NCBI RefSeq assembly: GCF_022846255.1
Contig: NZ_AP025682.1
Direction: 5' to 3' (one strand)
Source: Escherichia coli
GTDB lineage: Bacteria; Pseudomonadota; Gammaproteobacteria; Enterobacterales; Enterobacteriaceae
DNA: 64,000 nucleotides
The notes under the pieces were generated by a model. It did no database searches and was not told the origin of the DNA. It worked only from the letters and a program-made list of their open reading frames with translations. The position numbers and the translations under genes were made by a program. Below, piece by piece: positions 1 through 59,720 of the stretch. The stretch's first letter is position 1. Each line of letters opens with the position of its first letter.

Positions 1-1938
1 GATTATGGCATCTGCGTGCGTACAGGCCATGGCTGGCTGGCGCTGGACTGTGATAGCGAAGATGAAGACATTCAGGCAGATATTCGTAAAACGCTTGTGC
101 AACTTCTGGGTGAGTTGCCGCCGCGACGCTGGCGAGCAAACAGTAATAAGTGTCTGTATCTGCTGGCCGTTGATGGTGATTTCCGTAAGCGTATCCATCG
201 CCTGGCGGGGGATATGGGCATTATCGAGTTGCTGGCGAACGGGCAGCAGTTCGTTGCCTGCGGTACGCACAGCAGCGGCGCGCGTATTGAATGGGACGGC
301 GGTTTGCCGGATGAACCTCCGGCTATTACTGGTGAGCAGCTTGAAACGCTGTGGCAGCGCCTGGCTGAACAACTCCCTGTGTCGGTAACCACCGAAGCGG
401 GCAACACGAAGATGCGCGACCGATCAGCATTCACGCCCGGCGCGACGGATGATACAGCTGAATATCTTGATGCCAATGGCTGGACGCTGCTGGATGGCGC
501 AAATGGTGAACGATATATCCGCTGTCCGTTTGAAGACGGCCACAGTAGCGGGGGCGATCCAACAAGCACAGTTTATTTTCCTGCGGGAACCGCGGGCTTT
601 GAGCAGGGGCATTTTAAATGCCTGCATGCCAGTTGTGCGCATCGTGATGACGGAGATTTCCTTAATGCCATCGGGATCCGCAACGACGATTTCGAAGATC
701 TGACCAGCACCGAAGTGGCGGAACCTTTACCGCTGCCTGCTTTCGAGCGTGATAAATGGGGGCGTATCGAGGCAACCATCAGCAACGCAGCAAAAGCAGT
801 AGTACGCCCTGATTTTGTGGACATCGATATTCGCTTTGACCAGTTCCGCGACGAAATCATGTTTGCCCCTGCAGGATCCGGACAATGGCGGGCATTCACC
901 GATGCGGATTATGCGCGCCTGCGCATCACGATGGAAAAGCGGGGATTTAAACCTGTTGGTCGTGAACTTATTCGCGATGTGGTGTTACTTGCAGCCGATG
1001 AACAACCATTCGATTCAGCGATCACCTGGCTGAACGGACTGGAGTGGGATGGCGTGCCGCGCATCGAATGTTTCTACCATACGCACTTCGGTACAGCCGA
1101 CACGCCTTATACCCGTGCGGTGTCTATGTACATGTGGACCGCGTTGGCGGGGCGAGTACTGGAGCCAGGCATCAAAGCGGATATGGTGCCGATCCTCGTT
1201 GGTCCGCAGGGCTGCGGTAAGTCTTCCGGAGTAGAGGCACTGAGCCCTGATCCTGCGTTTTTTACTGAAATCTCTTTTGCCGAAAAAGACGATGATCTCG
1301 CTCGAAAAATGCGTGGTCGGCTGGTGGCAGAGATTGGTGAACTGCGCGGACTTAATACCAAAGAGCTGGAGTCAATCAAAGCGTTTGTGACGCGTACTCA
1401 CGAAAACTGGATCCCGAAATACCGGGAGTTCGCCACCCAGTTTCCTCGTCGCCTGGTGTTCGTTGGTACCACCAATGAGGACGAATTCCTTGCGGACAAG
1501 ACTGGTAACCGTCGCTGGCTCCCCGTGGAAGTGTCGAAAGTCGACGTGAAAGCGATAAAAAGAGATCTCCTTTTACTTTGGGCTGAGGCTCGTGAGGTGT
1601 TTCAGCGTCTGGGGGGTATCCAGTTCCGTGAGGCTGAACAACTGGCAGCGAGTGTCCATGAACAGTACACCATCAAGGATGCTTGGCTTGAAACGGTAGA
1701 GAAATGGCTCGACACGCCAGACCTGATGACTAATGAACTTCCGCGAAATTGCGAATTTTTACGCGCAAGTGATGTTTTGCGTGATGCGATTGGGCTAAAT
1801 CCTGACCGCATCGGAAAACGCGAAGAAATGCGAATTAGTAATGTTTTGCAAAATTGCGGGTATAAGCGTGCCCAAAGGCGAATTGGGGGGAAAAAATGCA
1901 AGGTTTGGGAACCGCTGGAACCACGCGGAACCACCTAA
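1..1938 (+). CDS. Phage DNA primase / replication protein, P-loop NTPase (VirE / P4-primase C-terminal-like); 5'-partial
   Basis: Reading frame is open from nt 1 (no stop before the GTG at 16), so the gene starts upstream of the window. Walker A-like GPQGCGKSS, Walker B-like LVFVGTTNE, N-terminal CxxC/HxxC cluster. Confidence 0.6.
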   Translation, partial: DYGICVRTGHGWLALDCDSEDEDIQADIRKTLVQLLGELPPRRWRANSNKCLYLLAVDGDFRKRIHRLAGDMGIIELLANGQQFVACGTHSSGARIEWDGGLPDEPPAITGEQLETLWQRLAEQLPVSVTTEAGNTKMRDRSAFTPGATDDTAEYLDANGWTLLDGANGERYIRCPFEDGHSSGGDPTSTVYFPAGTAGFEQGHFKCLHASCAHRDDGDFLNAIGIRNDDFEDLTSTEVAEPLPLPAFERDKWGRIEATISNAAKAVVRPDFVDIDIRFDQFRDEIMFAPAGSGQWRAFTDADYARLRITMEKRGFKPVGRELIRDVVLLAADEQPFDSAITWLNGLEWDGVPRIECFYHTHFGTADTPYTRAVSMYMWTALAGRVLEPGIKADMVPILVGPQGCGKSSGVEALSPDPAFFTEISFAEKDDDLARKMRGRLVAEIGELRGLNTKELESIKAFVTRTHENWIPKYREFATQFPRRLVFVGTTNEDEFLADKTGNRRWLPVEVSKVDVKAIKRDLLLLWAEAREVFQRLGGIQFREAEQLAASVHEQYTIKDAWLETVEKWLDTPDLMTNELPRNCEFLRASDVLRDAIGLNPDRIGKREEMRISNVLQNCGYKRAQRRIGGKKCKVWEPLEPRGTT

Positions 1939-2090
1939 AAGAGAAGGTGGTTCCACCTTGCAGACCTTGTGGCAAGCGGGGCGGAACCACTGGAACCACC
2001 TTTCTACTAGAAACCCCATATATATATATAAGTCGATTGAGGGAAAGGTTAGGAAAAGGTGGTTCCAGGTGGGGGCAGGTGGTTCCACTC
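1905..2090. repeat. Iteron array flanking an AT-rich tract; putative phage origin of replication
   Basis: At least 8 copies of GGAACCAC(C) in both orientations (direct about 1908, 1917, 1927, 1983, 1992; inverted GGTGGTTCC about 1946, 2058, 2078) around (TA)n at 2018-2030. Overlaps the 3' end of the primase gene. Confidence 0.5.
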
Positions 2091-2217
2091 CGCATTAGCA
2101 ACTTTTTGCATGTTGATACATGCAATATGCGAATCGGAACTGCGTTATCCACACCCACGGATAAACAGACGTGGTTCTCAGAAAATTTTTTCGTAGCAAA
2201 ACGTAGAGGTCAGAGCT

Positions 2218-2640
2218 ATGCGTAATATTCAACAGGTTTTAGAGCGCTGGGGTGGCTGGGCAGCGAGTGAAGGTGGTAGCGTCTACTTTCCTCCTGTTGC
2301 AGCCGGGTTTAAGAATCTGCTACCCGCGACGCAGTCTGGAAGGCTGAAATGCAGTGACAATGACGGTCTTATCATCAACTCCGCTATGAGCTGCCTGAAG
2401 AAAAAAGATCCGTATCTGTGCACGCTCCTTGAGTGGCATTACGTCCAGGCCATGCCCGTGCGGGCGATGGGTGAGAAGCTCGGCGTATCTCACACCCACG
2501 TTCTGAAGAGGCTTCAGGCGGCAGAGGGATTTATTGACGGTTGCTTAGCCATGCTGGATGTGGTGCTCGAAATGGATCAGTCGGTTCAGTCAAAGCCTCA
2601 GGCGATCAGGACTTTGCGTAGGAGCTGCTCGGCGGCATAA
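2218..2640 (+). CDS. Late-gene antitermination protein Q (QuuD-like small Q family)
   Basis: 140 aa; N-terminus MRNIQQVLERWGGWAA and C-terminal LKRLQAAEGFIDGCLAMLDVVLEMD resemble my recollection of E. coli prophage QuuD-type Q; sits immediately upstream of the lysis cassette; SD present. Confidence 0.7.
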   Translation: MRNIQQVLERWGGWAASEGGSVYFPPVAAGFKNLLPATQSGRLKCSDNDGLIINSAMSCLKKKDPYLCTLLEWHYVQAMPVRAMGEKLGVSHTHVLKRLQAAEGFIDGCLAMLDVVLEMDQSVQSKPQAIRTLRRSCSAA

Positions 2641-2671
2641 TATCCAGCAATCAATCACGTAAGGGAACCAG

Positions 2672-3013
2672 ATGGCTCTGATCAGCGTTCGCAACAGATT
2701 TGAAAGCTTCATGGAACAGAGGTACCCAGACCTGTCGTTGCAGGTCAAAGGTAATATTAGCGCATCAATGAAGGCTCAACTTGGCATCAGGATTGAACGA
2801 GAATTGTACAGTGAAGATGTTACTTACTGTGATTCAGCAGTTCAGTTGATGTGGACACTCTTTCAGGCAGGTGTTCTGGCCGAACGAAGAGCTACCAGCG
2901 TTACGCTTCCTGCGCTGAAGGCAAAGCCGGATAGCTTATACGATGCGGGTTATAACGAAGGTATTCAGGACTGTCGTAAACATCTGACGGCATCAGGCAT
3001 CAAGGTAAGATAA
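2672..3013 (+). CDS. Hypothetical protein, 113 aa, between Q and the lysis genes
   Basis: ORF starts 31 nt after Q stop and is followed by a hairpin terminator; no recognisable motif. Confidence 0.4.
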   Translation: MALISVRNRFESFMEQRYPDLSLQVKGNISASMKAQLGIRIERELYSEDVTYCDSAVQLMWTLFQAGVLAERRATSVTLPALKAKPDSLYDAGYNEGIQDCRKHLTASGIKVR

Positions 3014-3080
3014 AAAATAGTTGTGGAATTCCAAAAAGCCGATTAGCCTGATATCCGTTGAAAACAGTTCATCACGAAGA

Positions 3081-3104
3081 GGCTTCCGCAAGGGGGCCTT
3101 TTTT
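3081..3104 (+). terminator. Rho-independent terminator (GGCUUCC-GCAA-GGGGGCC + U6)
   Basis: 7-bp stem including G-U pairs, GCAA tetraloop, T-run 3099-3104, downstream of the 113-aa ORF. Confidence 0.4.
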
Positions 3105-3109
3105 ATTGC

Positions 3110-3334
3110 CCCATTCTGGGGAAAAGTTAATAAAACAGGGCTTTCGCTGCGAAAAAACGCTATGCAGTTTTTGCCCTTTTTTATGCACCTTTTATTCACT
3201 CGAATTTCGTCATTCTGGACCACTTAAGTTGATTAAATAGGCCTTTCATCGCAAATCTATTGCGAGCGGGGATCGTGTGGTTCCTATAACGTACATTATG
3301 TTAAATCACCTTCTTTTTTAACAAATTTAACAAG
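3110..3334 (+). promoter_or_regulatory. Putative Q-dependent late promoter / qut region (inferred by position only)
   Basis: Non-coding, AT-rich stretch between the Q-operon terminator and a strong terminator just upstream of the holin, analogous to lambda pR'-tR'. No confident -35/-10 assignment. Confidence 0.3.
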
Positions 3335-5424: not shown

Positions 5425-7047
5425 ATGCCGTTACCATTCCCCTTCGATTTTAAACATCCTGATTACCAGATGGTTTTTGAATGGCGGATGGAACGCCTGC
5501 AGCGCATTCGCCAGAATCCTGAAATATTGCCTGCACTAAAACAGTTTTACCGAACTAATCCGGCTCAGTTCATCATCGACTGGGGCATGACAACGGACCC
5601 GCGTAATATTGATTATGGCCTGCCGGTGACCATTCCGTTTTTACTCTTCCCTAAGCAGGAGGAGTGGATCCACTGGATTATGGAACGCTGGGGCAATCGG
5701 GAGAATGGTATTACCGAAAAATCCCGTGAAATGGGGCTCAGTTGGACCGCGATCGGACTGGCATGTTCGCTTTGTCTCTTCAACAAAGAAATGGTTATCG
5801 GTTTCGGCTCCCGTAAAGAGGAATACGTCGACAGCACCGGTGACCCGAAAGCATTGTTCTGGAAGGCGCGCAAGTTCGTGGAAACACTGCCTGTAGAGTT
5901 TCGCGGTTCGTGGAGCGAGAAGAAGCACGCGCCATATATGCGTGTTGAGTTTCCTGAAACTGGTGCCGTTATCAAAGGCGAGGCTGGCGATAATATTGGT
6001 CGTGGTGACCGTACCACGCTTTATCTGGTTGATGAGGCTGCATTCCTTCAGCGTCCTCTGCTGATTGATGCGGCGTTGTCACAAACGACGCGTTGCCGTA
6101 TCGACCTGAGTTCAGTTAACGGCATGGCGAACCCGTTCGCTCAGAAGCGTCATGGCGGGAAGATACCAGTATTCACATTCCACTGGCGGGATGATCCTCG
6201 CAAGGATGAAGAGTGGTATCGCAGGGAATGCGAGAAAATCGATAATCCGGTGGTGGTGGCACAGGAACTTGATCTGAACTACAGCGCATCAGCGGAAGGC
6301 GTCCTGATTCCATCCGAATGGGTACAGGCTGCCGTTGATGCGCATATCAAACTGGGTATCCAGCCAACAGGCAAACGACTTGGCGCGATGGATGTCGCCG
6401 ACGAAGGCAGGGACAAAAATGCCTTTTCCACCCGTCATGGCTTCCTCCTGGAAAATGTGCGGGAATGGTCCGGTGTGGGCAGCGACATTTATCAGTCCGT
6501 CGAGAAGGTTTTCGGCTTTTGCGAACAGGATAACCTCGAAGAGTTTCGCTTTGACGAGGACGGGCTGGGCGCTGGCGTTCGCGGCGATGCACGCGCTATC
6601 AACGAACTGCGTAACGCTGCGCGTCGACCGTCAATACTCGCCACACCGTTTCGAGGTAGTGGCGCGGTATTTGATCCGGATGATGAAGCTGTTCGCGGGG
6701 ACAACGGGCAAGCCGCACGTCTGAACAAGGACTTCTTCGCTAACGCCAAAGCCCAAAGCTGGTGGCGGTTACGTAAACTTTTTCAGAATACCTGGCGCGC
6801 CGTGGTTGAAGGTATGGCTTACAACCCGGACGAAATCATCTCAATCAGCAGTAGCATGGCACTCAAAGATAAACTCATCATCGAGCTTTCGCAGCCGACC
6901 TATTCCATTAATGGTGTGGGAAAAATCGTTATTGATAAACAGCCTGATGGGACCCGGTCGCCAAATCTTGCCGACTCGGTGATGATCAACTATGCCCCAA
7001 TGAATTCAGCCCTGAACATCTGGGAGTTGCTAGGGAGACAGGCCTGA
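5425..7047 (+). CDS. Terminase large subunit
   Basis: 540 aa; Walker B-like LYLVDEAAF; position between small terminase and portal. Confidence 0.75.
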
Positions 7048-32137: not shown

Positions 32138-35100
32138 ATGATGGAAATTCTGCGTGGTTCGCCTGCATTGTCGGCATTCCGAATCAACAAACTGCTGGCA
32201 CGTTTTCAGGCTGCCAGGCTCCTGGTTCACACTATTTACGCCGAGTATGTCCATTTTGCTGACCTCAATGCGCCGTTAAACGATGATGAGCACGCACAAC
32301 TTGAACGCCTGCTGAAATATGGCCCGGCACTCGCCAGCCACGCCCCGCAAGGCAAACTCCTGCTGGTGACCCCGCGTCCTGGCACCATCTCTCCCTGGTC
32401 TTCGAAAGCGACCGATATTGCCCATAACTGCGGGCTGCAACAGGTAAACCGCCTTGAGCGCGGCGTTGCTTACTATATAGAAGCCGGTACGCTGACCAAT
32501 GAACAATGGCAGCAGGTTACCGCTGAACTGCACGACCGCATGATGGAAACGGTCTTTTTTGCTTTAGATGATGCAGAGCAGCTGTTTGCACACCATCAAC
32601 CGACTCCGGTCACCAGCGTTGATTTGCTGGGGCAGGGCCGTCAGGCGCTAATCGACGCTAACCTGCGTCTTGGCCTGGCACTGGCGGAAGATGAAATTGA
32701 CTATTTGCAGGATGCTTTCACAAAGCTTGGTCGTAACCCGAACGACATCGAACTGTATATGTTTGCCCAGGCGAACTCCGAGCACTGCCGCCACAAAATT
32801 TTTAACGCCGACTGGGTTATCGATGGTGAACAGCAGCCGAAATCGCTATTTAAGATGATCAAAAACACCTTCGAAACCACGCCGGATCACGTTCTCTCTG
32901 CTTATAAAGATAACGCCGCCGTAATGGAAGGTTCTGAAGTGGGCCGCTACTTTGCTGACCACGAAACGGGCCGCTACGATTTCCATCAGGAACCGGCGCA
33001 TATTCTGATGAAAGTCGAAACTCACAACCACCCGACGGCGATTTCTCCGTGGCCGGGCGCGGCGACCGGTTCCGGCGGTGAAATCCGCGATGAAGGTGCC
33101 ACCGGACGTGGCGCAAAGCCGAAAGCCGGTCTGGTTGGTTTCTCCGTATCCAACCTGCGAATTCCTGGCTTCGAACAGCCGTGGGAAGAAGATTTCGGTA
33201 AACCTGAGCGCATTGTTACCGCGCTGGACATCATGACCGAAGGCCCGCTGGGCGGTGCGGCGTTTAACAACGAATTTGGTCGTCCGGCACTGAACGGCTA
33301 CTTCCGTACTTATGAAGAAAAAGTGAACAGCCACAATGGCGAAGAGCTGCGCGGTTATCACAAACCGATCATGCTGGCGGGTGGGATCGGCAACATTCGC
33401 GCCGATCACGTACAAAAAGGCGAGATCAACGTTGGTGCGAAGCTGGTCGTTCTCGGCGGCCCGGCAATGAACATCGGTCTTGGCGGCGGCGCGGCGTCTT
33501 CCATGGCATCTGGTCAGTCTGATGCCGACCTCGACTTTGCTTCCGTACAGCGCGACAACCCGGAGATGGAGCGTCGCTGCCAGGAAGTGATCGACCGTTG
33601 CTGGCAGCTTGGTGATGCCAACCCAATCCTGTTTATCCACGACGTTGGCGCAGGCGGTCTTTCTAACGCCATGCCGGAACTGGTGAGCGACGGCGGGCGC
33701 GGCGGTAAATTTGAACTGCGCGATATCCTGAGCGACGAACCGGGCATGAGCCCGCTGGAAATCTGGTGTAACGAATCCCAGGAACGCTACGTGCTGGCGG
33801 TTGCTGCCGATCAGTTACCGCTGTTTGACGAACTGTGTAAGCGTGAGCGCGCACCCTACGCGGTGATTGGTGAAGCGACCGAAGAACTGCATCTTTCTTT
33901 GCACGATCGTCATTTTGATAATCAGCCGATTGATCTACCGCTGGACGTACTGCTTGGCAAAACGCCGAAGATGACCCGCGATGTACAAACGCTGAAAGCG
34001 AAAGGCGACGCGCTGGCCCGTGAAGGGATCACCATCGCTGACGCGGTGAAACGCGTGCTGCATCTGCCGACCGTGGCGGAGAAAACTTTCCTGGTGACCA
34101 TCGGTGACCGCAGCGTAACCGGCATGGTGGCGCGCGATCAGATGGTGGGGCCGTGGCAGGTGCCGGTCGCTAACTGCGCGGTCACTACCGCCAGCCTCGA
34201 CAGCTACTATGGCGAAGCGATGGCAATTGGCGAACGTGCGCCAGTTGCGCTGCTGGATTTCGCCGCTTCTGCCCGTCTGGCAGTCGGTGAAGCGCTAACC
34301 AACATCGCCGCAACACAAATTGGCGATATCAAACGCATTAAACTTTCCGCCAACTGGATGGCGGCGGCAGGCCACCCTGGTGAAGATGCTGGCCTGTATG
34401 AAGCCGTTAAAGCTGTGGGTGAAGAACTTTGTCCGGCGCTGGGCCTGACGATACCGGTGGGTAAAGACTCTATGTCGATGAAAACCCGCTGGCAGGAAGG
34501 TAACGAAGAGCGCGAAATGACGTCGCCGTTGTCGCTGGTGATTTCCGCATTTGCCCGCGTGGAAGATGTACGTCACACCATTACGCCGCAGCTTTCTACC
34601 GAAGATAACGCACTGTTGCTGATTGATTTGGGCAAAGGCAATAACGCGCTGGGCGCAACGGCACTGGCGCAGGTTTATCGTCAGCTTGGCGACAAACCGG
34701 CAGATGTACGCGATGTTGCCCAACTGAAAGGTTTCTATGACGCGATTCAGGCACTGGTTGCACAGCGTAAGCTGCTCGCGTACCACGACCGCTCTGACGG
34801 TGGCCTGCTGGTGACGCTGGCGGAAATGGCGTTTGCTGGTCATTGTGGCATTGACGCAGATATCGCCACTCTGGGTGACGATCGTCTGGCTGCATTGTTT
34901 AGCGAAGAACTGGGTGCGGTGATTCAGGTGCGAGCCGCTGACCGTGAAGCCGTTGAAGCGGTACTGGCACAGCATGGGCTTGCTGATTGCGTCCATTATG
35001 TTGGGCAGGCGGTTTCCGGTGACCGTTTTGTGATTACCGCCAACGGGCAGACTGTATTTAGCGAAAGCCGCACCACGTTGCGTGTCTGGTGGGCAGAAAC

Positions 35101-36025
35101 TACCTGGCAGATGCAGCGCCTGCGTGACAACCCGGAGTGTGCCGATCAGGAACATCAGGCGAAATCAAACGACGCCGATCCGGGCCTTAATGTGAAACTG
35201 TCGTTCGATATCAACGAAGATGTGGCAGCACCGTTTATTGCCACTGGCGCGCGTCCGAAAGTTGCTGTGCTGCGTGAGCAGGGCGTGAACTCCCATGTTG
35301 AAATGGCGGCAGCTTTCCACCGTGCAGGCTTCGATGCTATCGACGTGCATATGAGCGATCTGCTGGCTGGACGCACGGGCCTGGAGGGTTTCCACGCCCT
35401 GGTCGCGTGCGGTGGTTTTTCCTACGGTGATGTGCTGGGCGCTGGTGAAGGTTGGGCGAAGTCTATCCTGTTCAATGACCGTGTACGCGATGAGTTTGCA
35501 ACCTTCTTCCATCGTCCGCAAACGCTGGCGCTGGGGGTATGTAACGGTTGCCAGATGATGTCTAATCTGCGTGAACTGATCCCAGGTAGCGAGTTGTGGC
35601 CACGTTTTGTGCGTAACACCTCCGATCGCTTTGAAGCGCGTTTCAGTCTGGTAGAAGTAACCCAAAGCCCGTCGCTGCTGTTGCAGGGGATGGTGGGCTC
35701 GCAGATGCCGATTGCTGTCTCTCACGGTGAAGGGCGCGTTGAAGTGCGCGATGCGGCGCATCTGGCGGCACTGGAAAGCAAAGGGCTGGTGGCACTGCGC
35801 TATGTCGATAACTTCGGCAAAGTCACTGAAACCTACCCGGCTAACCCGAACGGTTCACCGAACGGTATTACGGCGGTCACGACTGAAAGTGGTCGAGTCA
35901 CCATTATGATGCCGCACCCGGAACGAGTTTTCCGTACTGTCAGCAACTCCTGGCATCCGGAAAACTGGGGCGAGGATGGCCCATGGATGCGCATTTTCCG
36001 CAATGCACGTAAGCAGTTGGGGTAA
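32138..36025 (+). CDS. purL: Phosphoribosylformylglycinamidine synthase
   Basis: 1295 aa; FGAM synthetase with C-terminal glutamine amidotransferase domain. Confidence 0.95.
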
Positions 36026-36048
36026 GTCGTCAACCCATTGGTATTGCA

Positions 36049-36080
36049 GCCCGGATGAGGCATTCACGCCGCATCCGGCA
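36049..36080. repeat. REP-like palindromic element
   Basis: GCCCGGATGAGGCATTCACGCCGCATCCGGCA with CCGGATG / CATCCGG inverted arms. Confidence 0.5.
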
Positions 36081-36102
36081 TTAAGCACCAACCGCTATTA
36101 TG

Positions 36103-36127
36103 AGCTCCCAACTTCGGGAGCTTTTTT
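36103..36127 (+). terminator. Rho-independent terminator downstream of purL
   Basis: AGCTCCC-loop-GGGAGCT followed by T6. Confidence 0.6.
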
Positions 36128-36128
36128 G

Positions 36129-36243
36129 TGTCTGTAAATCACGACAATGGGTGGTTTGCCGTGTCGCTTTTTGGTGACACTTAACTCATTGATTTTAATA
36201 TTATCTAATAAGTTTATCTTAAGTTGTCTCTTTTTAGCGACAC
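36129..36243 (+). promoter_or_regulatory. Three TGTC-N10-GACA sites (GlrR-type sigma54 activator binding sites) upstream of glmY
   Basis: Sites at 36129-36146, 36162-36179 and 36226-36243, each exactly TGTC-N10-GACA. Confidence 0.65.
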
Positions 36244-36331
36244 AGTGGCTGATTTACATTCAAATAGCGGAGAAGCCATAAACCCCTCAAAGCAGCGTAT
36301 AATCAGTATGTTACCAAACTATTTTCTTTAT

Positions 36332-36351
36332 TGGCACAGTTACTGCATAAT
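36332..36351 (+). promoter_or_regulatory. Overlapping sigma54 (-24 TGGCAC / -12 TGCA) and sigma70 (-10 CATAAT) promoters of glmY
   Basis: TGGCACagttacTGCATAAT with GG-to-GC spacing of 12; predicted start about 36359. Confidence 0.65.
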
Positions 36352-36358
36352 AGTAAGC

Positions 36359-36543
36359 AGTGGCTCATTCGCCGACTTATGTCAGCCCCTTCGGGACGTG
36401 CTACATAAAATTCGAATGACGCACAACAAGGTGCCTGCCGTCCAACTTCTGATATCAGCGTAGCTATATCAACCATCGGGCGAAACGTCGAGTTAGGCAC
36501 CGCCTTATTCCATAACAAAGCCGGGTAATTCCCGGCTTTGTTG
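36359..36543 (+). ncRNA. glmY: Small regulatory RNA GlmY
   Basis: Begins AGTGGCTCATTC right after the sigma54/sigma70 promoter and ends at hairpin AAAGCCGGG-TAATT-CCCGGCTTT plus U-run; lies between purL and glrK. Confidence 0.75.
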
Positions 36544-36600
36544 TATCTGAACTTCCCCTCGGTTAGCATCAGGCTATTCGCGTCTGACGAGAGTAACGCC

Positions 36601-38028
36601 TTGAAACGCTGGCCCGTTTTTCCCCGCTCATTACGACAACTGGTAATGCTGGCATTTTTGCTGATTCTGCTGCCCCTGTTGGTGCTGGCATGGCAAGCCT
36701 GGCAAAGCCTGAATGCACTTAGCGATCAGGCGGCGCTGGTTAACCGCACTACGCTTATTGATGCCCGGCGCAGTGAAGCGATGACCAACGCGGCACTGGA
36801 GATGGAGCGCAGCTATCGTCAGTACTGCGTGCTGGACGACCCTACGCTTGCGAAGGTTTATCAAAGCCAGCGCAAGCGTTACAGCGAAATGCTCGATGCC
36901 CACGCAGGCGTGCTGCCGGACGATAAACTCTACCAGGCATTACGTCAGGATTTGAACAATCTGGCTCAACTTCAGTGTAACAACAGCGGTCCCGATGCTG
37001 CTGCCGCCGCGCGTCTGGAAGCCTTTGCCAGTGCCAATACCGAAATGGTGCAGGCCACGCGCACAGTGGTGTTCTCTCGTGGGCAGCAACTTCAGCGTGA
37101 AATCGCCGAACGTGGGCAATATTTTGGTTGGCAATCGCTGGTGCTATTTCTGGTGAGTCTGGTGATGGTACTGCTTTTCACGAGGATGATTATCGGTCCG
37201 GTGAAAAATATCGAGCGCATGATCAACCGGCTGGGGGAAGGGCGTTCTCTGGGCAATAGCGTCTCGTTCAGTGGACCGAGCGAGTTACGCTCGGTTGGGC
37301 AACGTATTCTTTGGTTAAGTGAGCGCCTGTCATGGCTGGAATCCCAACGCCATCAATTTTTAAGACATTTATCTCATGAATTAAAAACGCCACTGGCGAG
37401 TATGCGCGAGGGCACTGAATTACTGGCTGATCAGGTTGTCGGGCCGCTTACGCCAGAGCAAAAAGAGGTGGTGAGCATTCTTGATAGCAGCAGCCGCAAT
37501 TTGCAAAAGCTGATCGAACAACTGCTTGATTACAACCGTAAACAGGCGGACAGTGCGGTGGAACTGGAGAATGTTGAGTTAGCACCGCTGGTGGAGACAG
37601 TGGTTTCTGCTCATAGCCTGCCCGCACGGGCTAAAATGATGCATACCGACGTTGATCTCAAAGCAACAGCTTGCCTGGCGGAGCCAATGCTGCTGATGAG
37701 CGTACTGGATAATCTTTACTCCAATGCGGTGCACTACGGGGCTGAATCCGGTAACATTTGCCTTCGCAGCAGTTTACATGGTGCGCGGGTTTATATTGAT
37801 GTCATCAATACAGGCACGCCCATTCCGCAAGAGGAACGCGCCATGATCTTCGAACCCTTTTTTCAGGGAAGCCACCAGCGAAAAGGGGCGGTGAAGGGCA
37901 GCGGTCTGGGATTAAGCATTGCCAGGGATTGTATTCGCCGTATGCAAGGGGAACTGTATCTGGTCGACGAGAGCGGGCAAGACGTTTGTTTCCGCATTGA
38001 ATTACCGTCGTCGAAAAACACGAAATAA
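36601..38028 (+). CDS. glrK: Sensor histidine kinase GlrK
   Basis: TM helices, H-box (LSHELKTPL), ATPase domain; 475 aa from the TTG at 36601 (ORF track starts earlier at 36538). Confidence 0.85.
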   Translation: MKRWPVFPRSLRQLVMLAFLLILLPLLVLAWQAWQSLNALSDQAALVNRTTLIDARRSEAMTNAALEMERSYRQYCVLDDPTLAKVYQSQRKRYSEMLDAHAGVLPDDKLYQALRQDLNNLAQLQCNNSGPDAAAAARLEAFASANTEMVQATRTVVFSRGQQLQREIAERGQYFGWQSLVLFLVSLVMVLLFTRMIIGPVKNIERMINRLGEGRSLGNSVSFSGPSELRSVGQRILWLSERLSWLESQRHQFLRHLSHELKTPLASMREGTELLADQVVGPLTPEQKEVVSILDSSSRNLQKLIEQLLDYNRKQADSAVELENVELAPLVETVVSAHSLPARAKMMHTDVDLKATACLAEPMLLMSVLDNLYSNAVHYGAESGNICLRSSLHGARVYIDVINTGTPIPQEERAMIFEPFFQGSHQRKGAVKGSGLGLSIARDCIRRMQGELYLVDESGQDVCFRIELPSSKNTK

Positions 38029-38186: not shown

Positions 38187-38906
38187 GTGAATATGCGACA
38201 CATTTTTCAACGATTATTGCCCCGACGGCTGTGGCTGGCAGGGCTGCCATGTCTGGCATTGCTGGGTTGCGTGCAGAGTCACAATAGGCCAGCCATTGAT
38301 ACGCCAGCAGAAGAAAAAATTCCGGTTTATCAACTGGCTGACTATCTTTCTACTGAATGTAGCGACATCTGGGCGCTGCAAGGTAAATCTACCGAAACCA
38401 ATCCGCTTTACTGGCTGCGGGCGATGGATTGTGCTGATCGTTTAATGCCTGCGCAGTCGCGTCAGCAAGCCCGCCAATATGACGACGGCAACTGGCAAAA
38501 TACCTTTAAACAAGGGATTTTGCTCGCCGACGCCAAAATTACTCCGTATGAGCGCCGCCAGCTGGTCGCGCGCATTGATGCGCTAAGTACCGAGATCCCG
38601 GCACAGGTTCGCCCACTGTATCAACTTTGGCGCGACGGTCAGGCGCTGCAACTGCAACTGGCGGAAGAGCGCCAACGCTACAGCAAACTCCAGCAGTCCA
38701 GCGACAGCGAGCTGGATACTTTGCGCCAGCAACATCACGTTCTACAACAGCAACTGGAACTCACTACCCGCAAGCTGGAAAACCTGACCGATATTGAACG
38801 CCAGCTCTCGACCCGCAAACCGGCCGGAAATTTCTCGCCGGATACGCCGCACGAGAGTGAAAAGCCCGCGCCATCCACCGATGAGGTCACTCCTGATGAG
38901 CCATAA
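38187..38906 (+). CDS. qseG: Two-component-system accessory lipoprotein QseG
   Basis: Signal peptide with lipobox LLGCVQ; located between glrK and glrR. Confidence 0.8.
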   Translation: MNMRHIFQRLLPRRLWLAGLPCLALLGCVQSHNRPAIDTPAEEKIPVYQLADYLSTECSDIWALQGKSTETNPLYWLRAMDCADRLMPAQSRQQARQYDDGNWQNTFKQGILLADAKITPYERRQLVARIDALSTEIPAQVRPLYQLWRDGQALQLQLAEERQRYSKLQQSSDSELDTLRQQHHVLQQQLELTTRKLENLTDIERQLSTRKPAGNFSPDTPHESEKPAPSTDEVTPDEP

Positions 38907-40230
38907 ACCTGCGCATTTATTACTGGTCGATGACGATCCGGGATTGCTGAAACTGCTTGGCCTGCGCCTGACCAGCGAAGGCTACAGTGTGGTCACGGCG
39001 GAAAGTGGTGCTGAAGGATTGCGGGTACTGAATCGCGAAAAAGTAGATTTAGTCATCAGCGACCTGCGGATGGATGAAATGGACGGTATGCAGCTGTTTG
39101 CTGAAATCCAGAAAGTGCAGCCGGGAATGCCAGTAATTATTCTTACCGCGCATGGTTCTATTCCTGATGCCGTTGCTGCAACACAGCAGGGCGTGTTCAG
39201 TTTTCTCACCAAGCCTGTCGATAAAGATGCGCTATATCAGGCAATTGACGATGCGCTGGAACAATCCGCGCCAGCCACCGACGAACGTTGGCGCGAGGCG
39301 ATTGTCACCCGCAGCCCGCTGATGCTGCGCTTGCTGGAACAGGCGCGGCTGGTGGCACAATCAGACGTTAGCGTTTTGATTAACGGCCAGAGCGGCACCG
39401 GGAAAGAGATTTTCGCCCAGGCTATCCACAACGCCAGCCCGCGCAACAGCAAGCCATTTATTGCTATTAACTGTGGCGCATTACCCGAGCAATTGCTGGA
39501 GTCGGAGCTGTTTGGTCATGCACGTGGCGCGTTTACTGGCGCTGTCAGCAATCGCGAAGGTTTATTCCAGGCGGCGGAAGGCGGTACGCTATTTCTTGAT
39601 GAGATTGGCGATATGCCTGCACCGTTGCAGGTCAAACTGCTGCGCGTGTTGCAGGAGCGTAAAGTGCGCCCGCTGGGCAGTAACCGCGATATTGATATCG
39701 ACGTGCGGATTATTTCTGCGACCCACCGCGACCTGCCAAAAGCGATGGCGCGTGGGGAATTCCGTGAAGATCTTTATTACCGCCTCAATGTTGTCAGCCT
39801 GAAAATTCCGGCACTGGCGGAGCGCACAGAAGACATTCCGCTACTGGCAAATCACCTGTTGCGCCAGGCGGCAGAGCGACATAAACCGTTTGTCCGCGCG
39901 TTCTCCACCGATGCAATGAAACGCCTGATGACTGCGAGCTGGCCGGGCAACGTGCGCCAGTTGGTCAACGTGATTGAACAGTGCGTGGCGCTGACATCAT
40001 CTCCGGTAATTAGTGATGCGCTGGTGGAGCAGGCGCTGGAGGGCGAAAACACGGCGCTGCCAACCTTTGTTGAGGCGCGTAATCAGTTTGAACTCAACTA
40101 TTTGCGTAAGCTGCTGCAAATCACCAAAGGCAACGTCACCCACGCGGCGAGAATGGCGGGGCGCAACCGGACAGAATTTTATAAACTGCTTTCCCGACAC
40201 GAACTGGATGCAAACGATTTCAAGGAATGA
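38896..40230 (+). CDS. glrR: Sigma54-dependent response regulator GlrR
   Basis: Receiver domain (LLVDDD), AAA+ sigma54-interaction domain with GAFTGA motif, C-terminal HTH; start ATG overlaps qseG stop. Confidence 0.9.
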   Translation: MSHKPAHLLLVDDDPGLLKLLGLRLTSEGYSVVTAESGAEGLRVLNREKVDLVISDLRMDEMDGMQLFAEIQKVQPGMPVIILTAHGSIPDAVAATQQGVFSFLTKPVDKDALYQAIDDALEQSAPATDERWREAIVTRSPLMLRLLEQARLVAQSDVSVLINGQSGTGKEIFAQAIHNASPRNSKPFIAINCGALPEQLLESELFGHARGAFTGAVSNREGLFQAAEGGTLFLDEIGDMPAPLQVKLLRVLQERKVRPLGSNRDIDIDVRIISATHRDLPKAMARGEFREDLYYRLNVVSLKIPALAERTEDIPLLANHLLRQAAERHKPFVRAFSTDAMKRLMTASWPGNVRQLVNVIEQCVALTSSPVISDALVEQALEGENTALPTFVEARNQFELNYLRKLLQITKGNVTHAARMAGRNRTEFYKLLSRHELDANDFKE

Positions 40231-54221: not shown

Positions 54222-54317
54222 AACCAATCCCTTTGCAAGATAATGTGATTTAAACGTAATACACACTCTGGCACCTCGCCACGCCCCAGGAGTTGAGATA
54301 TTCGCTAATTGTCCTGG

Positions 54318-55529
<1,212 letters not shown>

Positions 55530-56342
55530 TTAAAGATCCAGCCCAGCCGCTACGTGGCGAATGCCGCGAATCGCTAAACCCGCATCAGCGTTGATCATCA
55601 CACCGCTTAATGCGCGATTATTGCGCCGCGATGCCAACATCACATACGGACCCGTAAAATCCGCCGGTTGCGGGAAAAATTGCAGCGGTAATATGGCGGC
55701 AATTTTCTCCGGCGTCAGAGACTGCATTATCGAGGTTTCACTTTGCCCGAGCGCCTGTGGGCCGCGCAGGTCGCTGGCCATACCACACGGGCCGACGCCA
55801 TTCACCCGCACTTTCGGTGCCAGTTCATAAGCCAGTTGGCGAATAAGTCCGGTTGCGGCATGTTTACTGGCGGTGTACAGCGGGCCACCGCCGCCGGGAT
55901 ACCAGGCGGCATTTGACAGTGTGAAAATCATGCTGCCTTCACTGGCGATTAACGCCGGAGCGCAGGCTTTTGCGCCCAGCAGGTAACCGAGTACGTTGAC
56001 GTTAAACAGCTCGTGGAAGCCGGTTTCGAGCGTCTCTGCGGGAGTATTAACCAGTGAGGCATTGTGATCCCAGATGCCCGCATTGCCGATAAAACAATCC
56101 AGTTTGCCAGAACGAGTCAGGATCTGATCGATCGCGCGTTGATAATCGGTATAACAGGTCACGTTGCCTTCCACCGCCAGAATATGTTCACCAAATCGCT
56201 GACGCAGACTGGCGACTTTCGCCGCCGACAGTTCCAACGTGGCAACCTGCGCGCCTTCTTCGATAAATCGCTCGACCAGCGCCAGGCCTAATCCCGAACC
56301 GCCGCCGGTAATAAAGATGGACTCGTTATGCAGATCGCTCAT
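55530..56342 (-). CDS. hcaB: cis-Dihydrodiol dehydrogenase (SDR family)
   Basis: 270 aa; SDR motifs TGGGSGLG and YTASK. Confidence 0.85.
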
Positions 56343-56658
56343 GGCTGCGCCTCCGGTAAGTCGATGAAGATGTCACCACCTTCAACGTGTACTGGATAAG
56401 TGGTTAGCGGATCGGTGGCGGGCAGGCATAATGCTTTCCCCGTTTTCAGGCAAAAACTGGCGGCGTGCAGCGGGCACTCCACCGTGGCGTCATCTTCCAG
56501 ATACCCTTCTGACATCGACGCATTACCATGGCTGCAACGATCGTTAATGGCATAAAACTCGCCGCCTACGTTGAACAGGGCGATGACGGGCGAGGTATCG
56601 ATCCGGAGAGCCTCACCCTCCGGCACATCCGCAACGGGACACGCATAAATTCGATTCA

Positions 56659-56659
<1 letters not shown>
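56339..56659 (-). CDS. hcaC: Rieske-type ferredoxin of 3-phenylpropionate dioxygenase
   Basis: 106 aa; Rieske motifs CSHG and CPLH. Confidence 0.85.
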
Positions 56660-58571
<1,912 letters not shown>

Positions 58572-58670
58572 CTATTTTTGTGCCATAAGGATGTTGCTGG
58601 TTGGTTGCTGATATGTGAAATAGTTAATTTCTACCAGCTGAGACGTTTTTTCGATAACAAGGGGAAGGTG

Positions 58671-59561
58671 ATGGAACTACGGCATTTACGCTATTTCGTC
58701 GCAGTGGCGCAGGCACTGAACTTTACCCGTGCGGCGGAAAAACTGCATACCTCACAGCCTTCGTTAAGCAGCCAGATCCGCGATCTTGAAAACTGTGTCG
58801 GTGTTCCGTTACTGGTGAGGGATAAGCGCAAAGTCGCGTTGACGGCGGCGGGAGAATGTTTTCTCCAGGACGCGCTGGCAATCCTCGAACAAGCGGAAAA
58901 TGCCAAATTACGGGCGCGGAAAATTGTTCAGGAAGACAGACAATTAACCATTGGCTTTGTGCCATCGGCGGAAGTGAATTTACTGCCAAAAGTATTACCG
59001 ATGTTTCGTCTCAGACAGCCAGACACCTTAATTGAGCTGGTGAGTTTAATCACCACGGAACAGGAAGAAAAAATTCGCCGTGGTGAACTCGACGTCGGCT
59101 TAATGCGCCATCCCGTTTATAGCCCGGAGATTGATTATCTGGAGCTTTTTGACGAACCATTAGTGGTGGTGTTACCGGTTGATCACCCTTTAGCACATGA
59201 AAAAGAGATCACTGCCGCGCAACTGGATGGCGTGAATTTCGTCAGTACTGATCCAGCGTATTCCGGTTCGCTTGCGCCGATCGTTAAAGCGTGGTTTGCG
59301 CAAGAAAACAGCCAGCCAAATATCGTCCAGGTGGCAACGAATATTCTGGTGACCATGAATCTGGTGGGGATGGGGCTGGGCGTCACTTTGATACCCGGTT
59401 ATATGAATAATTTTAATACCGGCCAGGTGGTATTTCGACCCATTGCCGGAAATGTGCCTGCCATTGCTTTACTGATGGCGTGGAAAAAAGGGGAGATGAA
59501 GCCGGCATTACGCGATTTCATCGCCATTGTGCAGGAACGTTTGGCATGCGTAACGGCATAA
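58671..59561 (+). CDS. hcaR: LysR-type transcriptional activator of the hca operon
   Basis: 296 aa from MELRHLRYFVAVAQALNFTRAAEKLHTSQPSLS (LysR HTH); divergent from hcaE. Confidence 0.85.
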   Translation: MELRHLRYFVAVAQALNFTRAAEKLHTSQPSLSSQIRDLENCVGVPLLVRDKRKVALTAAGECFLQDALAILEQAENAKLRARKIVQEDRQLTIGFVPSAEVNLLPKVLPMFRLRQPDTLIELVSLITTEQEEKIRRGELDVGLMRHPVYSPEIDYLELFDEPLVVVLPVDHPLAHEKEITAAQLDGVNFVSTDPAYSGSLAPIVKAWFAQENSQPNIVQVATNILVTMNLVGMGLGVTLIPGYMNNFNTGQVVFRPIAGNVPAIALLMAWKKGEMKPALRDFIAIVQERLACVTA

Positions 59562-59720
59562 TTACGCATTATTTTTGCAACATGCGTCGCGGCTCGCAGT
59601 TTTTTAGTGCTTGTGAACTGGCGTTACAGACATCAGGAAGCAGGCTCGAATATTCTTATTTTTCAACTTGCACCAACATTCGATTAACCCCAGACTAACG
59701 CCTCCTGACGGGAGGGACTC

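Follow-up and report, generated by a model that had tools for sequence, protein, structure and literature searches.

The window, by which we mean the whole 64-kb stretch of E. coli DNA that was analysed, includes a spacer between purL and glrK at 36026..36600. With the purL ORF ending at 36025 and the start of glrK taken as the annotated TTG at 36601, this spacer measures 575 bp, the size given in a preliminary description made from the sequence alone. The protein-coding genes around it are all on the plus strand, and together with the terminator that forms the upstream boundary of the unit they are as follows:

32138..36025, plus strand: purL (2271 bits against a cutoff of 783)
36102..36123, plus strand: purL terminator from the terminator scan, an 8-bp stem followed by TTTTGTGT, immediately 5′ of the first candidate activator site (ABS1)
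36601..38028, plus strand: glrK (qseE), sensor histidine kinase, with a TTG start
38193..38906, plus strand: qseG (yfhG), lipoprotein partner of the kinase, annotated (NCBIfam NF007997, 358.5 bits against a cutoff of 234)
38896..40230, plus strand: glrR (qseF), sigma54-dependent response regulator, annotated (NCBIfam NF011695, the GlrR equivalog, 982.3 bits against a cutoff of 763)

The order of purL followed by glrK-qseG-glrR, all in one orientation, is the synteny expected of glmY, and glnB is also found among the flanking genes. GlrR additionally matched the NtrC and ZraR models at 1e-120. The glrK product matched histidine-kinase families of NCBIfam, none of them over an equivalog cutoff, and the gene has the length and position of the annotated qseE/glrK both in K-12 and in a record with an identical spacer. 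The 575-bp spacer was found in 5425 of the 5426 complete E. coli genomes and is 100% identical to that of several complete E. coli chromosomes. When the annotation was compared (the best 8 matches were looked at, one record in detail), the RefSeq/PGAP record NZ_CP027461.1 (L001), with a 100% identical spacer, was found to have no feature between purL and qseE, whereas the curated record of K-12 MG1655 has the ncRNA glmY annotated between glrK and purL. The earlier remark that annotation misses this gene is borne out by the empty spacer of the RefSeq/PGAP record. Downstream of the purL stop codon, and ahead of the purL terminator, lies a REP-like palindrome, GCCCGGATGAGGCATTCACGCCGCATCCGGC (36049..36080), whose inner 18 bp K-12 lacks; this accounts for the spacer of 575 bp in the window versus 557 bp in K-12. 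A weak Rfam match to naRNA4 was also detected at 36049..36106 (22.5 bits, below the gathering score of 59.5).

An Rfam covariance search was performed on the whole window, and GlmY was the only family matched at gathering level. The preliminary description had staked its reading on such a match within the gap; the match is present, with 143.6 bits against a gathering score of 33 (E-value 4.8e-33), covers the full RF00128 model (model positions 1-163), and is the top scorer in clan CL00011. Alignment of the two spacers placed K-12 glmY (b4441, 184 nt) on the same segment, with 182 of the 184 bases identical. The RNA was accordingly delimited as:

36359..36542, plus strand: glmY primary transcript, 184 nt, from the K-12 b4441 alignment
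36359..36506, plus strand: GlmY core, 148 nt, from RF00128

At 148 nt, the core is as long as active GlmY is after processing according to PMC4152352. Besides the 184-nt length, the window and K-12 have in common the core of the sigma54/sigma70 promoter, the half-sites of the activator sites, the IHF-like sites, the terminator, and the purL and glrK flanks. They differ in that the window has (i) G for A at RNA position 13 and U for A at position 54 (36371 and 36412 of the window); (ii) G for C at -2; (iii) two other spacer bases inside the second activator site (ABS2); and (iv) a REP-like hairpin that is 18 bp longer, upstream, and beyond the control region. K-12 b4441 was formerly named tke1 or sroF, and RF00128 bears the Rfam name GlmY_tke1.

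GlmY and its paralog GlmZ (b4456, RF00083) belong to one Rfam clan, a lower-scoring overlapping match of which was suppressed in the search, and the two RNAs can be aligned over roughly their first 150 nt, with the sequence of the 5′ stem-loop and the central stem-loop common to both; the question is therefore whether the locus could encode GlmZ instead. This reading has next to no probability. GlmY outscored the other clan members at 143.6 bits, the identity to K-12 glmY and the purL-glrK synteny are those of glmY, and K-12 glmZ resides between aslA and hemY, with a different 3′ part that carries the glmS-pairing sequence. The RNA of the window lacks the GlmZ segment concerned, TTGTTGTC, whose pairing partner is GACAACGA. 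GlmZ identity was thus refuted by clan competition, K-12 glmY identity, synteny, and the different 3′ part. The two genes also differ in their control in E. coli, as glmZ is described in PMC3045617 as having a sigma70 promoter only, while in many Enterobacterales glmZ has the same GlrR/sigma54/IHF promoter architecture as glmY according to the same paper.

To place the glmY locus of the window in a comparative set, a genome collection was scanned with the pattern TGGCAC-N6-TGCA-N12-18-GCTCATTC, and 120 loci were returned. Those followed by a GlrK homologue, with enough upstream sequence, were taken as glmY loci, giving 57 rows (the window and 56 loci); these were divided into close loci, with a GlrK at least 80% identical (n = 26), and distant loci (n = 31). 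As the scan pattern contains the promoter, conservation of the sigma54 promoter in the 57 loci is circular, and RNA columns 5-12 (GCTCATTC) are invariant by construction. Independent of the pattern are (i) the activator sites; (ii) the IHF-like sites; (iii) the downstream GlrK; and (iv) the RNA body beyond GCTCATTC. About 45 loci of the scan (e.g., L007, L010, L013, L018, and L020) had the same TGGCAC-N6-TGCA promoter before GTAGATGCTCATTC and no GlrK downstream; in agreement with PMC3045617, these are glmZ genes under sigma54 control, from Enterobacter, Serratia, Pantoea, and Rahnella, among others. Outside Enterobacterales the pattern was matched in a few cases (Sideroxydans, Bacteroidaceae, and Pseudomonas viridiflava), which look like chance occurrences.

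The gap had been described as free of ORFs. No credible ORF was found, and in this sense the statement stands; taken literally it does not, as three mechanical ORFs are present:

36147..36281, plus strand: mechanical ORF of 44 aa
36224..36463, plus strand: mechanical ORF of 79 aa
36303..36569, minus strand: mechanical ORF of 88 aa

That the gap encodes a small protein in one of these frames, with the RNA-like features being secondary, is vanishingly improbable. The frames exist mechanically, but none of the three matched an NCBIfam family, and in another E. coli the 88-aa ORF shrinks to 66 aa while the 79-aa and 44-aa ORFs are absent. Across genera the ORF boundaries vary freely, whereas the sequence and structure of the RNA are conserved. 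The gap ORFs were rejected as coding on both grounds, the lack of an NCBIfam match and of conservation.

Minimum free energy folding of the 184-nt GlmY gave -66.8 kcal/mol (z = -5.3), with three predicted elements: a stem-loop at the 5′ end, a branched one in the centre, and the terminator hairpin. Compensatory changes were found in 10 of the 35 consensus pairs across the 57 loci, including those at columns 24/57 (UA/AU), 26/56 (AU/GC), and 155/165 (CG/AU). The terminator was predicted as:

36512..36544, plus strand: glmY intrinsic terminator, 14 bp with the loop UAAUU and a T-rich tract in the 3′ arm

Folded alone, this hairpin gave -23.4 kcal/mol (z = -6.9), and the annotated 3′ end of K-12 glmY maps to 36542. 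It was found by direct folding and was unseen by a simple terminator scanner, because the T-rich tract sits inside the 3′ arm of the extended stem. The transcript-like unit of about 185 nt with a strong terminator that had been proposed from the letters corresponds well to the 184 nt at 36359..36542 and this 14-bp hairpin. The distance from the 3′ end of glmY to the start of glrK is just 58 nt and the four genes lie on one strand, which raises the question of whether GlmY, instead of having a gene of its own, could be processed from the 5′ leader of a transcript of the whole glmY-glrK-qseG-glrR operon, produced by read-through of the hairpin. Such an arrangement has a precedent, as glmY-qseE-qseG-qseF are stated to form an operon in Proteus mirabilis (PMC8745638). 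We nonetheless consider this explanation unlikely for the window, since the unit ends in a stable hairpin with a T-rich 3′ arm, and E. coli glrK/glrR are transcribed independently according to PMC3045617. Partial read-through into glrK is possible and would supplement, not displace, the explanation of glmY as a gene in its own right.

Perfectly overlapping sigma54 and sigma70 promoters have their textbook case in glmY, and a GlrR/sigma54-dependent glmY promoter was reportedly described by Reichenbach in 2009 and by Gopel in 2011. Upstream of the start of the RNA in the window, the following promoter elements were located:

36331..36347, plus strand: predicted sigma54 promoter TTGGCACAGTTACTGCA, with GG at -26/-25 and GC at -14/-13 from the annotated +1
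36346..36351, plus strand: sigma70 -10 hexamer CATAAT at -13..-8, overlapping the CA of the sigma54 -12 element

The sigma54 element is composed of TGGCAC (36332-36337), AGTTA, and CTGCA (36343-36347), lies 12 nt before +1, and equals the consensus TGGCAC-N5-TTGCA with one mismatch, a C replacing the first T. The preliminary description had written it as TGGCAC-N5-TGCA; the element itself is there (36332-36347), but the spacing needs correction, since it is literally TGGCAC-N6-TGCA, that is, TGGCAC-N5-CTGCA. A scan of the window that allowed one mismatch returned 3 matches versus 3.64 expected, and the bare pattern thus carries no statistical weight. The weight of the element comes from its position and from outside evidence, namely identity to a ChIP-seq site: a strong sigma54 site at K-12 glmY, OS24, with the motif TTGGCACAGTTACTGCA, is reported in PMC4591121, and 36331..36347 of the window is identical to this published 17-mer and to K-12. 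From -3 upstream through ABS3 (the third activator site), the promoter region is identical to K-12.

The overlap of a CATAAT resembling a -10 element with the sigma54 element had been noticed beforehand, and the hexamer was indeed placed at 36346..36351. PMC3045617 identifies CATAAT as the characterised -10 of a sigma70 promoter that perfectly overlaps the glmY sigma54 promoter, and states that both promoters use the same start site. CATAAT was present in 18 of the 26 close loci and in 7 of the 31 distant loci, a distribution that fits the published grouping of genera. A consensus promoter scanner left the glmY sigma70 promoter uncalled because its -35 is weak; the promoter/terminator scanner reported just two elements, the purL terminator and, at 36174, an unrelated site resembling a promoter. 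Support for the sigma70 promoter and for the terminator of glmY, which both escaped the scanner, comes from folding, the K-12 annotation, and the literature.

Further upstream, candidate binding sites for the activator GlrR (QseF) and for IHF were identified at the following positions, with distances given from the glmY +1:

36129..36146, plus strand: candidate GlrR site ABS1, TGTCTGTAAATCACGACA, exact match, -230..-213
36162..36179, plus strand: candidate GlrR site ABS2, TGTCGCTTTTTGGTGACA, exact match, -197..-180
36182..36194, minus strand: IHF-like site upstream of ABS3, AATCAATGAGTTA, exact match to WATCAANNNNTTR
36225..36242, plus strand: candidate GlrR site ABS3, TGTCTCTTTTTAGCGACA, exact match, -134..-117
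36301..36313, plus strand: IHF-like site between ABS3 and the promoter, AATCAGTATGTTA, exact match to WATCARNNNNTTR; positions 6276..6288 of L001, offset +30025

The motif TGTC-N10-GACA was found exactly three times in the 64-kb window, at 36129, 36162, and 36225, as had been claimed for the activator sites, and all three fall inside one 114-bp stretch. Based on dinucleotide shuffles, 0.80 occurrences are expected per window, so that the cluster is far beyond chance; an estimate from the shuffle rate gives about 1e-6 expected clusters of three in 114 bp. The 57 glmY loci span Escherichia, Citrobacter, Enterobacter, Yersinia, Serratia, Photorhabdus, Proteus, and Morganella, and in 52 of them the triplet recurs with its distances unchanged (32-33 bp and 63 bp). 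Of the three sites, ABS2 is the best conserved across glmY loci, ABS1 has a counterpart at the same relative position in Enterobacterales glmY loci, and the position of ABS3 is kept in related genera, often with one mismatch (TGTT). An exact IHF match about 43 bp upstream of ABS3 was detected in roughly half of the 57 loci, while one at -29 to -32 from TGGCAC was detected in about 17 of the 57, 2 of these on the opposite strand. In PMC3045617, GlrR is reported to bind three motifs of the form TGTCN10GACA that lie over 100 bp upstream of E. coli glmY, two IHF-like regions are reported to flank ABS3, and IHF is reported to be essential for the sigma54 promoter of glmY but not for its sigma70 promoter.

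Taken together, the Rfam match, the K-12 alignment, the downstream genes, and the published description agree with the proposal that the purL-glrK gap has the known organisation of GlmY under GlrK/GlrR control. We conclude that 36129..36544 is almost certainly glmY of E. coli together with its complete control region, and no evidence against the identification of glmY was found. The locus and its control region are already known in E. coli and are not new. The analysis identified the RNA and its neighbouring genes, located the sequence elements, and showed that these are conserved. Its practical value is that a non-coding gene and its control region were recoverable from raw sequence, even though the RefSeq/PGAP record leaves the locus unannotated. 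Enhancer-dependent sigma54 promoters of the classical type, with an IHF bend, include glnHp2 and nifH under activators of the NtrC/NifA type. The glmY promoter has in common with these (i) activator sites more than 100 bp upstream; (ii) an IHF site between them and the promoter; (iii) GG and GC elements; and (iv) an AAA+ activator of the NtrC family. It differs from them in that its product is a non-coding RNA, and in being exactly overlapped by a sigma70 promoter with the same start site.

The arrangement of these elements is consistent with the following model. The lipoprotein QseG would help the kinase GlrK (QseE) to phosphorylate GlrR (QseF), all three being encoded directly downstream of glmY. 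GlrR would bind the three TGTC-N10-GACA sites between -230 and -117, IHF may bend the intervening DNA at one or both of the IHF-like sites, and GlrR would activate sigma54 RNA polymerase at TGGCAC-N5-CTGCA. The sigma70 promoter (-10 CATAAT) would provide basal transcription from position 36359, the start that it would have in common with the sigma54 promoter. The 184-nt transcript would stop at the strong hairpin terminator and would then be trimmed to about 148 nt. Processed GlmY would mimic its homologue GlmZ and sequester the RNase E adaptor RapZ, such that GlmZ would escape cleavage and activate glmS translation by base-pairing, which in turn would lead to more glucosamine-6-phosphate (GlcN6P) synthesis when the metabolite is scarce.

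From experiments performed in K-12, where the sequence is virtually identical, we infer for the window the binding by GlrR, IHF, and sigma54, the dependence of transcription on them, the use of both promoters, the processing of the 3′ end, and the sequestration of RapZ. Transcription of K-12 glmY is stated to depend on GlrR, sigma54, and IHF in PMC3045617, and processing of GlmY from 184 to 148 nt is described in PMC4152352. GlmY has been reported to mimic GlmZ and to sequester RapZ, whereupon GlmZ survives and activates glmS, and RapZ free of GlcN6P has been reported to stimulate QseE/QseF phosphorylation, with an increase in glmY transcription (PMC4152352, PMC7073468). The GlmY circuit keeps GlcN6P at the right level. 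This metabolite is the first committed precursor of peptidoglycan and LPS, and GlmY has in addition been linked to virulence regulation via QseE/QseF.

The sole strain-specific feature of glmY in the window is a minority allele, G13/U54, in place of the A13 and A54 of K-12. Position 13 is A in 55 of the 57 Enterobacterales glmY loci, and the exact first 42 nt of the G13 allele were found in 95 of the 5254 E. coli genomes that match that stretch. In the predicted fold, G13 is paired with C55, which makes stem-loop 1 one pair longer (-66.8 versus -64.2 kcal/mol). Based on this predicted fold, G13 could alter the stability or processing of GlmY, or its affinity for RapZ, and so shift the GlcN6P set-point in one E. 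coli lineage. We regard such an effect as very unlikely; a neutral polymorphism is much more likely and is the most likely explanation of G13.

Pairing of GlmY with the K-12 glmS leader was also modelled, with GlmZ as the positive control. In duplex energies over 26-nt windows, the GlmZ control was not above shuffles; the longest complementary runs to the leader were equal for GlmY and GlmZ; and whole-molecule duplex folding gave meaningless long duplexes. With the positive control failing, these comparisons were discarded and say nothing on whether GlmY lacks complementarity to glmS. It was observed that nt 149-156 of GlmY, AUUCCAUA (36507..36514), can pair with UGUGGAAU at codons 1-3 of K-12 glmS, forming 8 bp with one G-U. 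This pairing is probably meaningless, because equally long runs often arise by chance in such a comparison and 3′ processing cuts this part of the RNA away.

Elsewhere in the window, the first 25 to 27 kb (1..~27,400) are a prophage, with genes for VapE, antiterminator Q, a holin, terminase, DUF1073, a head morphogenesis protein, baseplate J, and a tail fibre. It adjoins yfhH (MurR/RpiR)-pgpC-tadA-mltF-purL. Of the 5426 complete E. coli genomes, only 118 have it at a coverage of at least 80%, with an identity of 97.6% in the best records. No tRNA gene was found in the 64-kb window, and the attachment site of the prophage is therefore no tRNA gene within it. The gene rpoE, the other QseF/sigma54 target, was sought in the window and is absent, because the prophage occupies 1..~27,400. 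On the other side of glmY, a 5.3-kb segment at 54304..59633, flanked by the hcaT and yphA regions, is missing from strain 95-3322. The segment presumably contains the hca genes as in K-12. Strain 95-3322 has a copy of IS1397 near the site of the missing segment.
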